Sequence record: QB031383.1
Strand: one strand, 5' to 3'
DNA length: 64,000 bases
Source: a phage
In this document: piece by piece, positions 56,330 through 59,781 of the stretch
Numbering within the stretch: the stretch's first letter is position 1
How the letters are laid out: every line of letters begins with the position of its first letter
Notes under the pieces: model-generated
What the model was told of the DNA's origin: nothing
Seen by the model: the letters and a program-made list of their open reading frames with translations, nothing else
Databases searched by the model: none
Made by a program: the position numbers and the translations under genes

Positions 56330-56356
56330 TAGCAAAAAGCCTCCAATAAGGAGGCT
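56330..56356 (-). terminator. rho-independent terminator at the downstream end of the tRNA array
   Basis: Minus strand AGCCUCC-UUAUU-GGAGGCU followed by UUUUUGCU. Confidence 0.7.
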
Positions 56357-56471: not shown

Positions 56472-56550
56472 TGGAGGCGGGAATCGGATTTGAACCGATG
56501 ATCTCCAGCATATGAAACTGGCGAGGACGACCAGACTCCTCTATCCCGCT
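56472..56550 (-). tRNA. tRNA-Met (anticodon CAT)
   Basis: Hand-folded cloverleaf: T-arm ATCGG-TTCAAAT-CCGAT, anticodon loop TTCATAT, CCA encoded; 1-72 position appears mismatched (A/C). Confidence 0.55.
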
Positions 56551-56552
56551 AT

Positions 56553-56627
56553 TATGTATCCCGTGCTGGATTCGAACCAGCATCACAATAAGCTGTGGAA
56601 CTCTTATCCTGTAAGTCTAACGGGAAA
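56553..56627 (-). ncRNA. tRNA-like element, anticodon arm not resolvable (possible pseudo-tRNA)
   Basis: Canonical T-arm GCTGG-TTCGAAT-CCAGC and 6-bp acceptor, packed between two tRNAs, but no standard D/anticodon arms. Confidence 0.3.
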
Positions 56628-56628
56628 C

Positions 56629-56702
56629 TGGTTGTTTCGACAAGAATCGAACTTGTGTCTCACGATTATCAGTCGTGGGTTCTACCATTGAACTACGAAA
56701 CA
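56629..56702 (-). tRNA. tRNA-Ile (anticodon GAT)
   Basis: Acceptor TGTTTCG/CGAAACA, D-arm GTTC-AATGGTA-GAAC, anticodon stem CACGA/TCGTG with loop CTGATAA, T-loop TTCGATT, CCA encoded. Confidence 0.7.
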
Positions 56703-56708
56703 TTTGAT

Positions 56709-56785
56709 TGGTCGGAATTGCAGGATTCGAACCTGCGACCCTACGCTCCCAAAGCGTATGCTCTACCAAACTGAGCTAAATTCCG
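56709..56785 (-). tRNA. tRNA-Pro (anticodon TGG)
   Basis: Acceptor CGGAATT/AATTCCG, D-arm GCTC-AGTTTGGTA-GAGC, anticodon loop TTTGGGA, T-arm GCAGG-TTCGAAT-CCTGC, CCA encoded. Confidence 0.75.
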
Positions 56786-56790
56786 TTATA

Positions 56791-56866
56791 TGGCTGGTCT
56801 GTCTGGATTTGAACCAAACCTACGACAGTCAAAGTGTCGTGTGCTACCGGACTACACTACAAACCA
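56791..56866 (-). tRNA. tRNA-Gln (anticodon TTG)
   Basis: Acceptor with U1-A72, anticodon stem CGACA/TGTCG with loop CTTTGAC, T-loop TTCAAAT, discriminator G, CCA encoded. Confidence 0.7.
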
Positions 56867-56964
56867 ATAAATCATTTAATGAAGGGCAACCAGAAGAGGT
56901 GTGAGAGAAGGAGAAAACCATGAGTAAAAGAGAAAGTTTTCTGGCAACCCTTTATTAAATAATT

Positions 56965-57038
56965 TGGAGCGTTCTACGAGGATCGAACTCGTGCCGCCGA
57001 CTTGGAAGGACGGAATGCTACCGCTACACCAAGAACGC
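56965..57038 (-). tRNA. tRNA-Gly (anticodon TCC)
   Basis: Acceptor GCGTTCT/AGAACGC, anticodon loop CTTCCAA, T-arm ACGAG-TTCGATC-CTCGT, discriminator U, CCA encoded. Confidence 0.6.
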
Positions 57039-57049
57039 CCTACATCTTT

Positions 57050-57079
57050 ACTATACTACATTTTACTATTGGTTGTCAA
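57050..57079 (-). promoter_or_regulatory. promoter-like element (aCTATTGACAa, -10-like TATAGT) directly upstream of tRNA-Gly
   Basis: Minus strand TTGACA-18-TATAGT; one of four copies of the same -35-containing motif. Confidence 0.5.
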
Positions 57080-57352
57080 TAGTTTTATTGAGCGGGACAG
57101 TGACGAGTATCCCATTGGGTGACTAGCCCTACGTTCGGTAAGCTAACTTAAAATAATACAAAACCAAAGTCAAATATTATTCTTCGTTGCTGTCGATGGG
57201 AGAGCCGCTTCTTCTTTTGCCCCATCCAACCCTACTCCGGTCAAGTTTCAGGTAACTCTTTTTGTGATCAACACAATACTAAGAACACTGTCTTTCGAGC
57301 AGACCTTGTGCACAGGATACGACGATCAATCACAGTGCTCTTAATGTTGTGT

Positions 57353-57427
57353 TGGTGCTCCCACTCTGAATCGAACAGAGATCCACGGATTACAAAACCG
57401 TTGTAATAGCCATTATACTATAGGAGC
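57353..57427 (-). tRNA. tRNA-Thr (anticodon TGT)
   Basis: Acceptor GCTCCTA/TGGGAGC (one G-U), anticodon loop TTTGTAA, T-arm CTCTG-TTCGATT-CAGAG, CCA encoded. Confidence 0.6.
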
Positions 57428-57433
57428 AAAGCT

Positions 57434-57511
57434 GGGACTCGGCAGGATTCGATACCTGCAATTCCAGAAGCCTCTTGGCGACTGGGGGGTTTACCTTAAC
57501 TCTACAAGTCC
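57434..57511 (-). ncRNA. tRNA-like element with 8-nt T-loop and no recognisable anticodon arm (possible pseudo-tRNA)
   Basis: 7-bp acceptor GGACTTG/CGAGTCC and T-arm GCAGG-TATCGAAT-CCTGC; internal region forms a long imperfect hairpin instead. Confidence 0.3.
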
Positions 57512-57518
57512 ATAATTC

Positions 57519-57604
57519 TGGCGATGAGTATAGGATTTGAACCTATATCGTTCTTTCGAACACGGATTAACAGTCCGCCGCTTAAACCATTCAGCCAACT
57601 CATC
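57519..57604 (-). tRNA. tRNA-Asn (anticodon GTT) with an unusually long variable arm
   Basis: Perfect acceptor GATGAGT/ACTCATC, Asn-type anticodon arm GCGGA-CTGTTAA-TCCGT, discriminator G, CCA encoded; 15-nt variable region GTTC-GAAA-GAAC. Confidence 0.55.
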
Positions 57605-57610
57605 TTAATT

Positions 57611-57698
57611 TGGTGGTGAGTGATGGAGTCGAACCACCCGAATCGCAATGATAACAGATTTACAGTCTGCCCCGCTACCCCTACGGAATTAACTCACC
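57611..57698 (-). tRNA. tRNA-Tyr (anticodon GTA), type II
   Basis: Acceptor GGTGAGT/ACTCACC, anticodon arm GCAGA-CTGTAAA-TCTGT, long variable arm, T-loop TTCGACT, CCA encoded. Confidence 0.65.
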
Positions 57699-57828
57699 TA
57701 AATACTAATATTTAAATTCTTTTTAAAATAGCCAGTGTTCACACCACTAACTATGAGTTATCGGTAAAGTGGTTACCGCCACTTGCCGAAGATTTACTCT
57801 GCTAAAGTAAGCTATATTAAAAAGAACT

Positions 57829-57914
57829 TGGCGGTAGATGTAGGACTCGAACCTACACGCCGTTTCCGACTACAGTTTAGCAAACTGTCGTGGCTACCAT
57901 TTCACCAATCTACC
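57829..57914 (-). tRNA. tRNA-Ser (anticodon GCT), type II
   Basis: Acceptor GGTAGAT/ATCTACC, anticodon stem ACAGT/ACTGT with loop TTGCTAA, long variable arm, T-arm GTAGG-TTCGAGT-CCTAC, CCA encoded. Confidence 0.7.
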
Positions 57915-57918
57915 AATC

Positions 57919-58009
57919 TGGCGGAAGGAGGGAGAGTCGAACTCCCAAGGCTCTTTCAAGCTCGGCGGTTTTCAAGACCGTTTTCGTCGCCACGTCGATT
58001 TGCCCTTCC
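57919..58009 (-). tRNA. tRNA-Ser (anticodon TGA), type II
   Basis: Acceptor GGAAGGG/TCCTTCC, anticodon loop CTTGAAA, long variable arm, T-arm GGGAG-TTCGACT-CTCCC, CCA encoded; D-arm atypical. Confidence 0.55.
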
Positions 58010-58018
58010 ATACTTATA

Positions 58019-58047
58019 ATCTAACATAAAATAATGTTAGTTGTCAA
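58019..58047 (-). promoter_or_regulatory. promoter-like element (aCTATTGACAa, -10-like TTAGAT) upstream of tRNA-Ser
   Basis: Minus strand TTGACA-17-TTAGAT; shares the TATG-TTAG block with the 58605 copy. Confidence 0.5.
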
Positions 58048-58243
58048 TAGTTTTTTAAAACATTTTACCATGAATGGTGACTCCACCAACCCCCGTTCTC
58101 AACGAACGGTGCTCTTCGAGCATTTATGTCTTCTAATATAACCGTGGCCTTTGTTTATAATGTCTGACATACTTGCCTCATTCTCTGCCACCATGATCAG
58201 TAGTGGGTTCAAATCACTTGAGCTAATTCATGTTAAAATGTTC

Positions 58244-58318
58244 TGGTGTCTTTACAAGGAATCGAACCTTGACTAAGAGTTTAGAAGACTCCTGTGCTAT
58301 CCATTACACCATAAAGAC
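58244..58318 (-). tRNA. tRNA-Arg (anticodon TCT)
   Basis: Acceptor GTCTTTA/TAAAGAC, D-arm GTGT-AATGGATA-GCAC, anticodon loop CTTCTAA, T-arm CAAGG-TTCGATT-CCTTG, CCA encoded. Confidence 0.7.
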
Positions 58319-58320
58319 GT

Positions 58321-58395
58321 TGGTGGCCCTGGCTGGTTTCGATCCAGCTACCTATCGGTTATGAGCCGACAGCTCTCCCATTGAGCTACAGGGCC
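58321..58395 (-). tRNA. tRNA with CAT anticodon (Met or lysidine-type Ile2)
   Basis: Acceptor GGCCCTG/CAGGGCC, D-arm GCTC-AATGGGA-GAGC, anticodon loop CTCATAA, non-canonical T-loop ATCGAAA, CCA encoded. Confidence 0.6.
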
Positions 58396-58604
58396 ATAAA
58401 TGTGGTAACAGAGACGCTGACGATTGTAGAGAACCGCTACATTCTCTAAGACCAAGCCCAACTTTCAGCGTAAAAGTTCTTGAGCCGAGACTATTCCTTT
58501 TCCTCTTTGGTAGCTAACCTCTGAAGAAGTAGTCTCTAACACTACCGCAGTGCAAGCCCCTCTTAACAAAAGTCAACGACCCTGTTACCACACTTGATGA
58601 ACGT

Positions 58605-58633: not shown

Positions 58634-58641
58634 ATAGTTAT

Positions 58642-59373: not shown

Positions 59374-59405
59374 TGCACACCTCCATTCTTGTTAAGATGT
59401 TCCGT

Positions 59406-59434
59406 ACTGTACTTCATACTGATCTATAGATCAA
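59406..59434 (-). promoter_or_regulatory. leftward promoter candidate (TTGATC-17-TACAGT) in the divergent control region
   Basis: Read on the reverse complement; spacer contains the palindrome GATCTATAGATC. Confidence 0.45.
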
Positions 59435-59781
59435 GTATTATTTATAATAATTTATTATTTTATTTTTAATTGATAGAAGTTGATCTGTACGTACCAGTTC
59501 TGATACACTGTACCTGTTTGTTAGATCTAATAATTATTTATTATTAATATTTAATAATTATTAATCTAGTACGGAGTACAGTACTTGAGTACAGAGTACT
59601 ACATCAACAACCTAAAACCTTAACTCGCTGCGCTCGTTAATAGATTTCTAGGGTAGCATACTTCGAACACAAAAGTCAAGAGTTTTATTAAAAATTATTT
59701 TCTGTGTGCAAAAACCTTGCTTAAACAGGTAGCAATAGTATAGCCTATAACATAAGCTTCATAAGAGGCTCGTAGAGCAAG

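Follow-up and report, generated by a model that had tools for sequence, protein, structure and literature searches.

The tRNA operon and its spacers

The window, the whole stretch of 64,000 nucleotides that was analysed, belongs to a phAPEC8-like E. coli myovirus (Phapecoctavirus) and contains a tRNA array in which all tRNAs are located on the minus strand. Ten tRNAs were called in this array by ARAGORN, and Rfam added two further, weaker tRNA-like matches outside the three spacers that are discussed here. Degenerate tRNA-like genes are also present, at 57428-57518 and 56551-56628, and the array is a mosaic, with tRNA-Thr and one hairpin of spacer 1 swapped between lineages. Elsewhere in the array, the gaps between tRNAs are mostly just 2-9 nt.

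A consensus scan gave three sigma70-like promoters (P1, P2 and P3), which have AACTATTGACAA in common, and one terminator, all on the minus strand. P1 (58605..58634, minus strand; TTGACA, 18 nt, TG-n-TAGGAT) has 10 of 12 consensus matches and an extended -10, and is kept in phiWec190/181 (alignment A3). Its transcription start is predicted near 58598. Between spacer 3 and spacer 2 (58244..58395), the minus strand encodes tRNA-Met/Ile2(CAU) (58321-58395) and tRNA-Arg(UCU) (58244-58318), both identified by ARAGORN, the Rfam tRNA model and their sequence. P2 (58018..58047, minus strand; TTGACA, 18 nt, TG-n-TAGATT) directly follows spacer 2, and a phiWec-type contig has TTGACA at the equivalent position. 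P3 (57050..57079, minus strand; TTGACA, 18 nt, TATAGT; 11 of 12 matches) is located between spacer 1 and tRNA-Gly and is invariant across lineages (alignment A2). The tRNA operon ends with an intrinsic terminator (56338..56356, minus strand), a 7-bp G+C-rich stem followed by TTTTT, for which the ASO2A record carries a terminator annotation.

According to the original prediction, the three spacers hold inverted repeats and no canonical tRNA. ARAGORN indeed calls no tRNA there, Rfam run on each spacer alone at E<=10 gave no tRNA (RF00005) or other credible match, and the inverted repeats were found where they had been placed. They had been read on the plus strand; the actual RNA is the complement, since it is the minus strand that carries the array with its promoters. 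This location, the presence of three unrelated families and the tRNA descent of spacer 2 had been missed.

Spacer 3, the 5' leader of the operon

Spacer 3 (58396..58604, minus strand) is the 5' leader of the operon and has a closed multibranch fold. It extends from tRNA-Met at 58395 up to the putative start near 58598, with 2 nt between its structure and tRNA-Met. In the terminal helix, 58566-58595 and 58398-58427 form 27 pairs, and four hairpins are enclosed by this helix. Folding of the minus strand gave a dG of -76.8 (z -4.95; z -5.4 in an independent run) versus -53.7 for the plus strand. In the consensus of 74 pairs, nine have changed on both sides, compared with 0-1 in slid controls, and this covariation comes essentially from one divergent lineage (phiWec/PsgM04F). 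In the alignment, 97% of the cells are paired. The terminal helix hardly changes, with 23 of its 27 pairs never varying, while the interior diverges. With the covariance model of spacer 3 (R2), the minus strand scored 246 bits and the plus strand 33; the model had no match in the Seunavirus, 05F01 or T4 loci, and spacer 3 was detected only in Phapecoctavirus. At the corresponding place, PVP-SE1 carries another closed element, which is ~190 nt long.

Two helices named in the original prediction, UAGAGAA/UUCUCUA and GAGACUA/UAGUCUC, are among the four enclosed hairpins in the consensus fold of spacer 3 and carry compensatory changes, but the outer helix ACGCUGA/UCAGCGU is not supported. The outer helix is present in the sequence, yet it is broken by a G-to-A change in the phiWec lineage, would cross a covarying hairpin and competes with the extended terminal helix. 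At most, it might conceivably form as a pseudoknot or alternative conformer.

Spacer 2, structure and distribution

Spacer 2 (58052..58243, minus strand; boundaries from the covariance-model match) has a length of ~190 nt, and the CCA of tRNA-Arg directly adjoins its first base. The leader-trailer helix P1 (58234-58243 with 58058-58067) runs on into a 7-bp acceptor-like stem (58226-58232 with 58069-58075), and together they close a junction of hairpins P3 to P8. P1 plus P2 comprise 15-17 pairs with a small internal loop. Folding gave a dG of -53.9 and a z of -4.07. The spacer 2 alignment (A1) contains eight sequences from two phage subfamilies with ~70% identity, which represent only ~4 independent lineages. 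Compensatory changes are present in 21 of the 50 predicted consensus pairs, compared with 3-6 in slid controls, a level that was reached by none of 500 shuffles. Through these changes, paired cells are kept at 97%. Hairpin P7 has four covarying pairs, and several unpaired blocks are invariant (UUAGCUCA, ACUGAUCAU, GAGAAUGAG and UCGNAGAG). On this comparative evidence, spacer 2 is a real structured RNA.

The covariance model R1 finds exactly one copy of spacer 2 per phage (170-227 bits) in Phapecoctavirus, Klebsiella phage 05F01 and Seunavirus, and this single copy is kept in Stephanstirmvirinae and Vequintavirinae. The homologs are always located inside tRNA arrays and flush with tRNAs. In 05F01 the order is tRNA-Met, spacer 2 homolog and tRNA-Leu, and in GAP31 and 4MG the homolog is also followed by tRNA-Leu. 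Pattern scans, which required exact conserved blocks so that divergent members would escape, gave 11 stretches in IMG/VR, of which only four were real and all belonged to the same phage groups, four real matches in metagenomes and zero matches in a genome collection.

Descent of spacer 2 from a tRNA-Ile

Spacer 2 contains a segment (58189..58226, minus strand) that corresponds to U8-A9, the D-arm (P3) and the anticodon arm (P4) of a tRNA. In a local alignment, this segment is identical to positions 8-43 of the array's own tRNA-Ile at 29 of 37 positions. The alignment was equalled by none of 500 shuffles, and p is 0.003 as the maximum over 29 tRNAs. The homology covers the 5' third of spacer 2. 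When the PVP-SE1 version of spacer 2 was compared with positions 18-55 of the PVP-SE1 tRNA-Ile, p was about 0.07. Spacers 1 and 3 have no significant similarity to any tRNA.

The anticodon-like loop of spacer 2, CUGAUCA (58194-58200), has 7 nt and is invariant in all members, and four of the six pairs of its P4 stem covary. It reads as the anticodon GAU with A37 replaced by C, and by its sequence is derived from the anticodon loop CUGAUAA through this single change, which results in the palindrome UGAUCA. A hammerhead-like reading of this loop was rejected, as the motif is not CUGAUGA and no model matches. The 3' part of spacer 2 (58069..58115, minus strand), in the sequence and alignment A1, appears to follow the order of a tRNA: GAGC, one base, the 17-nt hairpin P7, a 5-nt RGGUY linker, P8 and AUUCAUG. 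In this mapping, P8 would be a truncated T-arm-like hairpin and AUUCAUG the 3' strand of the acceptor stem.

Several canonical tRNA features are found in spacer 2 only: a 7-bp acceptor stem, U8, a D-arm and a 7-nt loop with U33. The acceptor-like stem, CAUGAAU/AUUCAUG, covaries and is followed by UA. Other features are absent from spacer 2. Position 37 is not a purine and has a C in every member, the GTPsiC T-loop is missing with a 4-bp stem and tetraloop (GGUG-GAGU-CACC) at the T-arm position, and instead of CCA the acceptor strand is followed by G-UAA, with the stem lengthened by the leader-trailer helix. Due to the loss of the T-loop and CCA, spacer 2 would not be chargeable. Judged from these alignments, spacer 2 is a chimera that was derived from tRNA-Ile(GAU) and gained ~75 nt of extra helices.

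Spacer 1, a hairpin and conserved blocks

Spacer 1 is a composite of the hairpin H1 and a conserved remainder, and folding of the whole spacer is not significant (z -1.7 and -1.4). H1 (57271..57352, minus strand) is a long hairpin of 82 nt at the 5' end of spacer 1, which begins directly after the CCA of tRNA-Thr and consists of a 20-bp basal stem and a conserved tip. Its z is -4.3 on the minus strand versus -1.9 on the plus strand, and 7 of its 20 pairs are compensatory in a six-sequence alignment. Homologs with ~83% identity accompany tRNA or tRNA-like genes in Klebsiella siphophages, Sashavirus and E. coli prophages. An SsrA-like tag segment and a tRNA-like domain with a terminal CCA flank the homolog in Klebsiella, Sashavirus and Deseoctovirus phages. 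The H1 model (R3) matched the window once and did not match the Seunavirus, 05F01 or T4 loci, and with this distribution the idea that H1 is a generic repeated processing hairpin was rejected.

The remainder of spacer 1 (57084..57270, minus strand; 187 nt) consists of conserved blocks at 57193-57270 and 57084-57140 around a hairpin at 57141-57192, which is replaced by a different hairpin in other lineages. The hairpin GAUGGGG/CUCCCAUC in spacer 1 has one compensatory change. The blocks adjoin P3 on its upstream side and may be kept as RNA or as a DNA-level control of P3. Structure beyond chance is present in spacers 2, 3 and H1 (z -4 to -5) but not in the rest of spacer 1 (z about 0).

Comparison with known RNA families

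In Rfam, a search over 5 kb at E<=1 and a search of the whole window at the gathering threshold gave only tRNAs, the latter without ROOL or GOLLD. Ribozymes and riboswitches were not matched over the 5 kb at E<=1 or in the spacers at E<=10. The three families are absent from Rfam 15, and the GenBank records that were examined carry no RNA annotation for them. Paralogy among the three spacers was rejected, with one copy per genome for each of R1, R2 and R3 and only chance matches of 7-12 nt in blastn between the spacers.

These new families belong to a kind that has been known since T4, the non-tRNA RNAs of phage tRNA clusters. RNA C and RNA D of T4 are also called species 1 and species 2 RNAs. 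In T4, tRNA-Arg(UCU) is followed by the stable RNAs rnaD and rnaC, whose role is reported as unknown (PMC3014915, PMC9697503). As with spacer 2, these are non-tRNA RNAs in a phage tRNA cluster, on the strand of the tRNAs and straight after tRNA-Arg(UCU), and rnaC is partly tRNA-like, as it ends in a canonical T-arm. However, there is no sequence or structure homology between spacer 2 and rnaC/rnaD: R1 with filters off gave only noise there, and R2 and R3 had no match in the T4 locus (L026). The T4 RNAs are also shorter (119 and 139 nt), and the retained tRNA parts differ: rnaC has the T-arm, whereas spacer 2 has the D and anticodon arms but no longer the T-loop.

ROOL and GOLLD are phage-encoded structured RNAs of unknown function near tRNA islands (PMC12286853). 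The spacers resemble them as multi-helix RNAs in a phage, adjoining a tRNA island, but the spacer RNAs are shorter, with 190-210 nt compared with about 580 to over 800 nt in ROOL and GOLLD, and no Rfam match was obtained. ROOL and GOLLD form homo-oligomers, and it might be conjectured that the palindromic loop of spacer 2 could mediate self-association as well.

Chen et al. are said to have described YrlA in 2014 as a non-coding RNA whose structure is in part a tRNA-like scaffold and which is sometimes encoded by phages. YrlA forms the Ro-binding stem from its two ends and retains the T and D arms, whereas the paired ends of spacer 2 are found at the acceptor position and its T-loop is missing, so that the topology is reversed. 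The only match to YrlA (RF02553) has an E of 0.18, which is chance level, and covers genuine tRNAs at 56645-56764.

With tmRNA (SsrA) and tmRNA-like phage genes, spacer 1 has only hairpin H1 in common (~83%). Spacer 1 has neither a tRNA-like domain with a T-arm nor CCA, ARAGORN and Rfam gave no tmRNA in it, and no tag-like segment was found in the window. The possibility that spacer 1 is a tmRNA remnant was rejected on these grounds.

The spacers also share long irregular helices between the units of one transcript with RNase III hairpins such as T7 R1.1 and those of rRNA operons, but those sites are simple, whereas spacers 2 and 3 enclose conserved multibranch domains. RNase III substrates have about two turns (at least 20 bp) of mostly regular double helix. 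This length is reached by the terminal helix of spacer 3 (27 pairs) and by H1 (20), and P1 plus P2 of spacer 2 comprise 15-17.

Conservation and best explanation

As a yardstick for conservation, phiWec190 was compared at the spacers and at the third codon positions of the adjacent gene, a contrast that is possibly inflated if the array recombined more recently than this gene. Identity is only 37% at the third codon positions, whereas it is about 80% in each of spacers 2 and 3, 100% in H1 and 91-93% in the blocks of spacer 1, with the central part of spacer 1 replaced.

The original prediction suggested that the spacers may encode small RNAs and proposed folding and covariation in related phages as a check. 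Pairing is conserved in these relatives for spacer 2, spacer 3 and H1, with strong covariation in spacer 2 (21/50), moderate covariation in spacer 3 (9/74) and 7/20 pairs in H1. The spacers therefore very probably encode conserved structured RNAs. As the best overall explanation, we favour, with moderate confidence, three unrelated non-coding RNA modules that share the transcripts of the tRNAs and are under selection.

Alternatively, the spacers could encode very short peptides, which is hardly credible. The 25-codon basic ORF that had been noted as an example (MGQKKKRLSHRQQRRIIFDFGFVLF; 57148..57225, minus strand) exists, and the automatic annotation of WPEC4 calls hypothetical proteins in all three spacers. 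This ORF was rejected as a gene: it is interrupted at codon 3 by a stop in both phiWec190 and iGC_PHA_EC001 and by one at codon 13 in SF1-1, and phiWec181 has a different sequence at this site. The remaining short ORFs of the transcribed strand have no start codon or a frameshift in relatives, so that every testable ORF is disrupted; this result leaves out two short ORFs in H1, where the nucleotides hardly vary among the compared relatives. The substitutions keep base pairs and not reading frames, and the hypothetical protein calls are thereby corrected. It is only slightly easier to regard the spacers as functionless, decaying remains of tRNA genes or other genes with leftover inverted repeats. 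Spacer 2 clearly descends from a tRNA-Ile, other degenerate tRNA-like genes are found in the array (57428-57518 and 56551-56628) and the mosaic array has replaced segments, all of which would fit decay. However, this reading is largely refuted by the covariation, as 97% of the cells in spacers 2 and 3 are still paired through compensatory changes. Moreover, the elements are 80-100% identical, compared with 37% at the neighbouring third codon positions, and both Stephanstirmvirinae and Vequintavirinae have kept one copy of spacer 2.

A role purely in cis is the most serious rival, although rather unlikely. The spacers would then be processing or insulation elements with entry sites for RNase III (or RNase E), and the pieces would be discarded without a function in trans. 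Such a role agrees with the near-perfect helix of about 17-27 bp at the base of each spacer, the elements adjoining tRNA ends and promoters, and the nearly invariant terminal helix of spacer 3 (23/27 pairs) around a diverging interior. On the other hand, a cleavage site needs no conserved five-way junction, no invariant unpaired blocks such as those of spacer 2 and no internal hairpins that covary across two phage subfamilies, and most gaps in the same array have 2-9 nt and no such element. It is improbable that the conservation is partly at the DNA level, in which case a transcription factor of the phage or the host would bind the conserved blocks in spacer 1, and the last part of spacer 2, as upstream regulatory regions of P3 and P2. 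The 3' block of spacer 1 is located within ~60 bp upstream of the -35 of P3 and is 93% conserved without a fold signal, spacer 2 ends at P2, and its invariant loop includes GATC, which might serve as a Dam methylation site. This would leave the strand-specific folds, G-U pairs and covariation of spacers 2, 3 and H1 unexplained, and it is a tRNA and not a promoter that comes after the spacer 2 homolog in Seunavirus and 05F01. It is also very unlikely that spacer 2 or 3 is a new ribozyme that cleaves itself, or a leader that senses a ligand or a tRNA and controls the output of tRNAs. Ribozymes and aptamers typically have multi-helix junctions whose joining strands are invariant, spacer 3 is located at the 5' end of the operon as its leader and spacer 2 is located exactly at tRNA junctions, but even at E<=10 no Rfam ribozyme or riboswitch was matched, and neither element is followed by a terminator or other expression platform.

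Processing and possible functions

If the three spacers are RNA modules, they would be part of minus-strand transcripts that start at P1 to P3, include the tRNAs and end at the terminator at 56338. The modules could be freed from the polycistronic precursor by the cuts that mature the tRNAs, in which RNase P would cut the 5' end of the next tRNA and the 3' end of the previous tRNA would be trimmed. RNase III may cut the long closing helices as well. A tRNA end or a promoter marks the beginning or the end of each spacer element, each element has a helix of about 20-27 bp such as RNase III cuts, and RNase processing sites in the spacers, which had also been suggested, are plausible. As the ends of the modules would be buried in a helix of about 17-27 bp, they should persist as stable small RNAs, a persistence that would resemble RNA C and RNA D of the T4 tRNA cluster. 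Excision and stability of the spacer RNAs are probable. A literature search gave no usable transcriptomics of phAPEC8- or PVP-SE1-like phages.

A tentative and rather speculative function of spacer 2 is that of a mimic. As a tRNA-Ile look-alike, it could act in trans by binding or titrating a factor that recognises tRNAs, with a host tRNA-targeting enzyme, a modification enzyme or a charging enzyme as candidates. Alternatively, it could pair via CUGAUCA, either with itself (UGAUCA) or with the GAU anticodon of tRNA-Ile (AUC-A). Phage tRNAs are known to counter tRNA-targeting defences (PMC10264068, PMC11464382).

The tRNA operon of these widely isolated E. coli phages, which are therapeutic candidates, would provide three further RNA families. 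For spacer 2, the comparative signal is sufficient for a structure and an origin, in which a tRNA-Ile lost its chargeability and gained helices. The invariant loop and the closing helices are targets that can be mutated, whether the role is in tRNA maturation, in countering tRNA-targeting defences, of which many were recently discovered, or elsewhere.

It is doubtful, though conceivable, that spacer 2 is a tRNA-Ile-derived effector RNA and not a passive by-product. Its loop shows an Ile codon followed by A (AUC-A), similar to a T-box specifier. Such an effector could form RNA-only dimers or oligomers through loop-loop kissing, as a miniature analogue of ROOL/GOLLD, could capture tRNA-Ile(GAU) through codon-anticodon pairing, or could be an uncleavable and unchargeable decoy for a host nuclease or toxin that is aimed at tRNA-Ile. 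If true, any of these modes would give the first mechanistic handle on the 50-year-old puzzle of non-tRNA RNAs.

Organization of the tRNA Array

The three tRNA-free spacers of the array (spacer 1, 57084-57352; spacer 2, 58052-58243; spacer 3, 58396-58604; all on the minus strand) contain conserved, strand-specific and covarying RNA structures, which are set exactly between tRNA ends and promoters. The original prediction of structured spacers was largely right. ARAGORN finds no canonical tRNA in them, the Rfam tRNA model is negative even at E<=10, and the inverted repeats are present in the sequence; these had been written in plus-strand notation, and the RNA concerned is the complement, on the minus strand. 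No other Rfam family matches any of the three spacers, including in searches at E<=10 per spacer. Kinship among the spacers was rejected, as they are mutually unrelated.

The tRNA region is 98-99.8% identical to that of phAPEC8-like E. coli myoviruses (Phapecoctavirus, Stephanstirmvirinae, about 150 kb). ARAGORN places 10 tRNAs at 56472-58395, on the minus strand only. Two further minus-strand tRNA-like genes are detected by Rfam only: one at 57614-57698 (39 bits, tRNA model), annotated as tRNA-Tyr in some relatives and as a pseudo-tRNA in others, and one at 57923-58009 (37 bits, tRNA-Sec model, below threshold), annotated as tRNA-Ser-TGA in ASO2A. Degenerate tRNA-like genes with a good T-arm and acceptor stem and an aberrant anticodon region occupy inter-tRNA gaps at 57428-57518 and 56551-56628 (minus strand), and are called by neither ARAGORN nor Rfam.

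A consensus scan identified three sigma70-like promoters on the minus strand with the common motif AACTATTGACAA, the -35 elements of which lie at 58634 (P1), 58047 (P2) and 57079 (P3). An intrinsic terminator at 56356-56338 (minus strand) closes the array. Given the strand of the tRNAs and promoters and the position of the terminator, the array is transcribed from high to low coordinates, in the order P1, spacer 3, tRNA-Met, tRNA-Arg, spacer 2, P2, five tRNAs or tRNA-like genes, tRNA-Thr, spacer 1, P3, tRNA-Gly and other tRNAs, and the terminator. Among relatives (Klebsiella phage ZCKP1, ASO2A and phiWec190, a member of the divergent Phapecoctavirus lineage), the array is mosaic. The ZCKP1 array carries an insertion of ~800 bp with an HTH antitoxin-like gene, and in several phages the tRNA-Pro/tRNA-Gln interval holds an additional segment of ~90 nt.

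Spacer 2, a Probable tRNA-Ile-Derived RNA

The suggestion that the spacers encode small RNAs is supported most strongly for spacer 2. Its minus-strand RNA folds at -53.9 kcal/mol (z -4.07), and no shuffled sequence folds as well. Using blastn, a homolog was found in all Phapecoctavirus records and, at ~70% identity, in Klebsiella phage 05F01, which also belongs to the Stephanstirmvirinae, and in Seunavirus of the Vequintavirinae (PVP-SE1, GAP31, SSE-121, 4MG and Cronobacter phages). Every homolog lies within a tRNA array, on the same strand as the tRNAs and abutting them. In the window, its first base is the base after the CCA of tRNA-Arg(UCU); in 05F01 the element stands between tRNA-Met and tRNA-Leu, and in GAP31 and 4MG it is followed by tRNA-Leu. 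In PVP-SE1 (L005:3186-3700) and SSE-121 (L008:516-1010), an HNH homing-endonuclease gene is inserted directly 3' of the homolog, so that 30 nt from the 5' end of a tRNA-Leu-like gene are left upstream of the insertion and a complete, different tRNA-Leu follows downstream.

An alignment of eight sequences made with MAFFT gives a consensus of 8 helices and 50 pairs, in which 97% of cells are paired and 21 of the 50 pairs show compensatory changes. None of 500 shuffles equaled this, and sliding the partners by 1-3 columns left 3-6 compensatory pairs. With the covariance model of spacer 2 (R1), each phage yields a single copy scoring 170-227 bits, and spacer 1, spacer 3 and T4 yield no match. Pattern scans of IMG/VR and metagenomes returned the same phage groups only, and such scans gave no hit in 185,579 bacterial and archaeal genomes.

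The 5' part of spacer 2, UAGCUCAAGUGAUUUGAACCCACUACUGAUCAUGGUG, can be aligned with the tRNA-Ile(GAU) of the same array over positions 8-43 of the latter, with 29/37 identical (0/500 shuffles as good; p=0.003 as the maximum over 29 tRNAs). By this alignment, helix P3 of spacer 2 corresponds to the D-arm and helix P4 to the anticodon arm. P4 is capped by a 7-nt loop, CUGAUCA, which differs from the tRNA-Ile loop CUGAUAA by a C in place of A37; this loop does not vary in any member of the family, whereas the stem below it covaries. The closing stem CAUGAAU/AUUCAUG, followed by U-A, is a covarying 7-bp analogue of the acceptor stem, lengthened by a 10-bp leader-trailer helix. The 3' part follows the order of a tRNA: GAGC and a single base lead to a hairpin of 17 nt, after which come the 5-nt linker RGGUY, a shortened hairpin in the T-arm position (GGUG-GAGU-CACC) and the acceptor 3' strand. 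In PVP-SE1, this part aligns weakly with one of the phage's tRNA-Ile genes (p about 0.07). Both tRNA-like parts are separated by ~75 nt, comprising the covarying helices P5 and P6 and the invariant joining strands GAGAAUGAG and UCGNAGAG.

Spacer 2 has neither a T-loop nor a CCA. As a tRNA it was rejected, since it fails the defining features of a purine at position 37, a T-loop and a CCA end. Because of its tRNA alignments, spacer 2 is probably a chimeric RNA derived from tRNA-Ile, which would be unable to serve as a tRNA and would be kept as a folded RNA. Genuine tRNA-Ile carries the t6A37 modification. The derived C37 removes this site and creates the palindrome UGAUCA together with an Ile codon followed by A (AUC-A).

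Spacer 3, the Operon Leader

Spacer 3 extends from the inferred P1 start site to 2 nt before tRNA-Met and thus forms the 5' leader of the operon. Its minus-strand RNA folds at -76.8 kcal/mol (z -4.95; no shuffle as stable), compared with -53.7 for the plus strand. Homologs are confined to Phapecoctavirus, and those of the divergent lineage (phiWec179-190 and PsgM04F) are ~80% identical; in the loci of Seunavirus, 05F01 and T4, the covariance model of the family (R2) has no match. In the consensus fold, which comprises 74 pairs, a 27-pair terminal helix surrounds a four-hairpin junction. Changes on both sides are seen in 9/74 pairs, versus 0-1 when the partners are slid, and 97% of cells remain paired. 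In the terminal helix, 23 of the 27 pairs show no variation at all, which makes it almost invariant. Of the nested helices originally proposed, UAGAGAA/UUCUCUA and GAGACUA/UAGUCUC belong to the consensus fold and covary, while the outer ACGCUGA/UCAGCGU helix is not supported: a G-to-A change in the divergent lineage disrupts it, and it crosses a hairpin with a compensatory change.

Just upstream of the spacer 2 homolog, PVP-SE1 has a different, unannotated closed element of ~190 nt (L005:2806-2998) with a 20-bp terminal helix (z -4.6). The architecture of a closed element recurs without sequence likeness to spacer 3. Before this element lies an odd tRNA-like gene of ~110 nt (L005:2698-2810), with a canonical T-arm, a CCA and a large internal insertion.

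Spacer 1 and the H1 Hairpin

Spacer 1 as a whole shows no significant fold (z -1.7). When it is split, the first 82 nt, the hairpin H1 (57271-57352), reach z -4.3, and the other 187 nt give z about 0. H1 is more stable on the minus strand (-30.3) than on the plus strand (-22.4), begins directly after the CCA of tRNA-Thr and has 100% identity to its counterpart in the divergent lineage of Phapecoctavirus. In the phiWec190 array, a second H1-like unit of 187 nt is present. Unexpectedly, matches of ~83% occur in unrelated temperate phages, including Klebsiella siphophages, Sashavirus, Deseoctovirus C1 and E. coli prophages. H1 matches 209 phage records and 11 E. coli genomes and is annotated in none; in the loci examined, its homologs adjoin tRNA or tRNA-like genes on the same strand. 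In a six-sequence alignment the 20-bp basal stem has 7 compensatory pairs, and the tips vary among versions.

In the temperate phages, the H1 3' strand GUUGUGG also pairs with a downstream CCACAAC-C-CCA, which closes a tRNA-like domain. In the E. coli USMARC-50748 prophage (L039:2490-2680), this domain is a 115-nt 'pseudogenic tRNA-Gly' (PGAP) with canonical D and T arms. GUUGUGG is here the H1 3' strand and the 5' acceptor strand at once, and the sequence of the acceptor 3' strand, CACAAC, recurs in the H1 5' strand, so that only one of the two pairings can form at a time. In the window, UUGUG of H1 is able to pair with CACAA at 57262-57266.

Upstream of H1, several temperate phages carry an unannotated tmRNA-like segment: Klebsiella phage SCNJ1-C (L025:2316-2500), Escherichia phage C1 (L040:2340-2680) and Sashavirus (L034:1817-2300). 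These match the Rfam models tmRNA_permuted and beta_tmRNA below threshold (E 1e-6 to 9e-5) and code for SsrA-like tags, such as ANEDRFLMAA with one stop and ANDDVVLMAA with two, followed by H1 and the tRNA-like domain with its CCA end. ARAGORN calls no tmRNA at these three segments. Their layout differs from that of canonical tmRNA, as the tag precedes the acceptor 5' strand. Matches to the tag-bearing segment occur in 542 very diverse phage records (Vi01-like, G7C-like, FelixO1-like, siphophages and P1), and none of the 30 matches listed has an RNA annotation there. In the window, both the tag, which was looked for, and the tRNA-like domain are absent.

The rest of spacer 1 shows no fold signal. 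It consists of two blocks, 91-93% conserved, around a hairpin that is swapped for another in other lineages; P3 follows shortly after the 3' block. This part may be conserved at the DNA level.

Possible Mode of Action and Related RNAs

The spacer RNAs would be co-transcribed with the tRNAs and released by RNase P, cutting at the tRNA that follows, and by 3' maturation of the tRNA that precedes, while RNase III perhaps cuts the closing helices of 17-27 bp. They would then persist because both ends are base-paired. The same release and persistence are known for T4 RNA C and RNA D, which in the T4 cluster lie directly 3' of tRNA-Arg(UCU) and to which no role has yet been assigned (PMC3014915; PMC9697503). 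The main rival is that the spacers act purely in cis, for processing. Because the never-varying parts of spacer 2 are tRNA-like, a tRNA look-alike acting in trans is tentatively favored for this spacer. Phage tRNAs are known to counter tRNA-targeting defences (PMC10264068, PMC11464382, PMC11555353).

By kind, the spacer RNAs group with T4 RNA C and RNA D, the stable non-tRNA RNAs known from phage tRNA clusters, as well as with ROOL and GOLLD, phage RNAs associated with tRNA islands (PMC12286853). Membership in any of these families was rejected, as the models do not match, and ROOL, GOLLD and YrlA are unlike the spacer RNAs in size and topology. The spacer RNAs are new families of a kind already known. 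Their value is that of testable examples with a defined structure for a question of long standing.

Coding Potential and Selection

The alternative that the spacers encode very short peptides was rejected. The proposed 25-codon ORF exists (57148-57225), but relatives interrupt it with a stop at codon 3 (phiWec190 and iGC_PHA_EC001) or codon 13 (SF1-1). ESCO5 and ukendt carry a frameshift in the 34-codon ORF of spacer 3, and the spacer 2 ORFs lose their start codon or gain stops in Seunavirus. The only 'conserved' ORFs are those within H1, where there is next to no nucleotide variation between the compared relatives. The hypothetical proteins called in the spacers by some GenBank records are likely over-annotation.

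Selection was assessed by comparing the window with phiWec190, with the adjacent 83-codon gene as a yardstick. Third positions of this gene differ at 52/83, and identity is 80-82% in spacers 2 and 3 and 91-100% in the conserved parts of spacer 1. Since the array is mosaic, with tRNA-Thr only 60% identical between the two phages and one hairpin swapped, recombination history could account for part of this contrast.

A plus-strand ORF of 12 codons, MSKRESFLATLY (56920-56958), lies in the tRNA-Gln/tRNA-Gly gap, antisense to the tRNAs, and is preceded by AAGGAG at good spacing. The stretch 59400-59600, between divergent genes, is very A+T-rich and has several repeats with GTAC (e.g., gtactgtac, gtacgtacc and agtacggagtacagtacttgagtacagagtac); a role in regulation or replication is conceivable.
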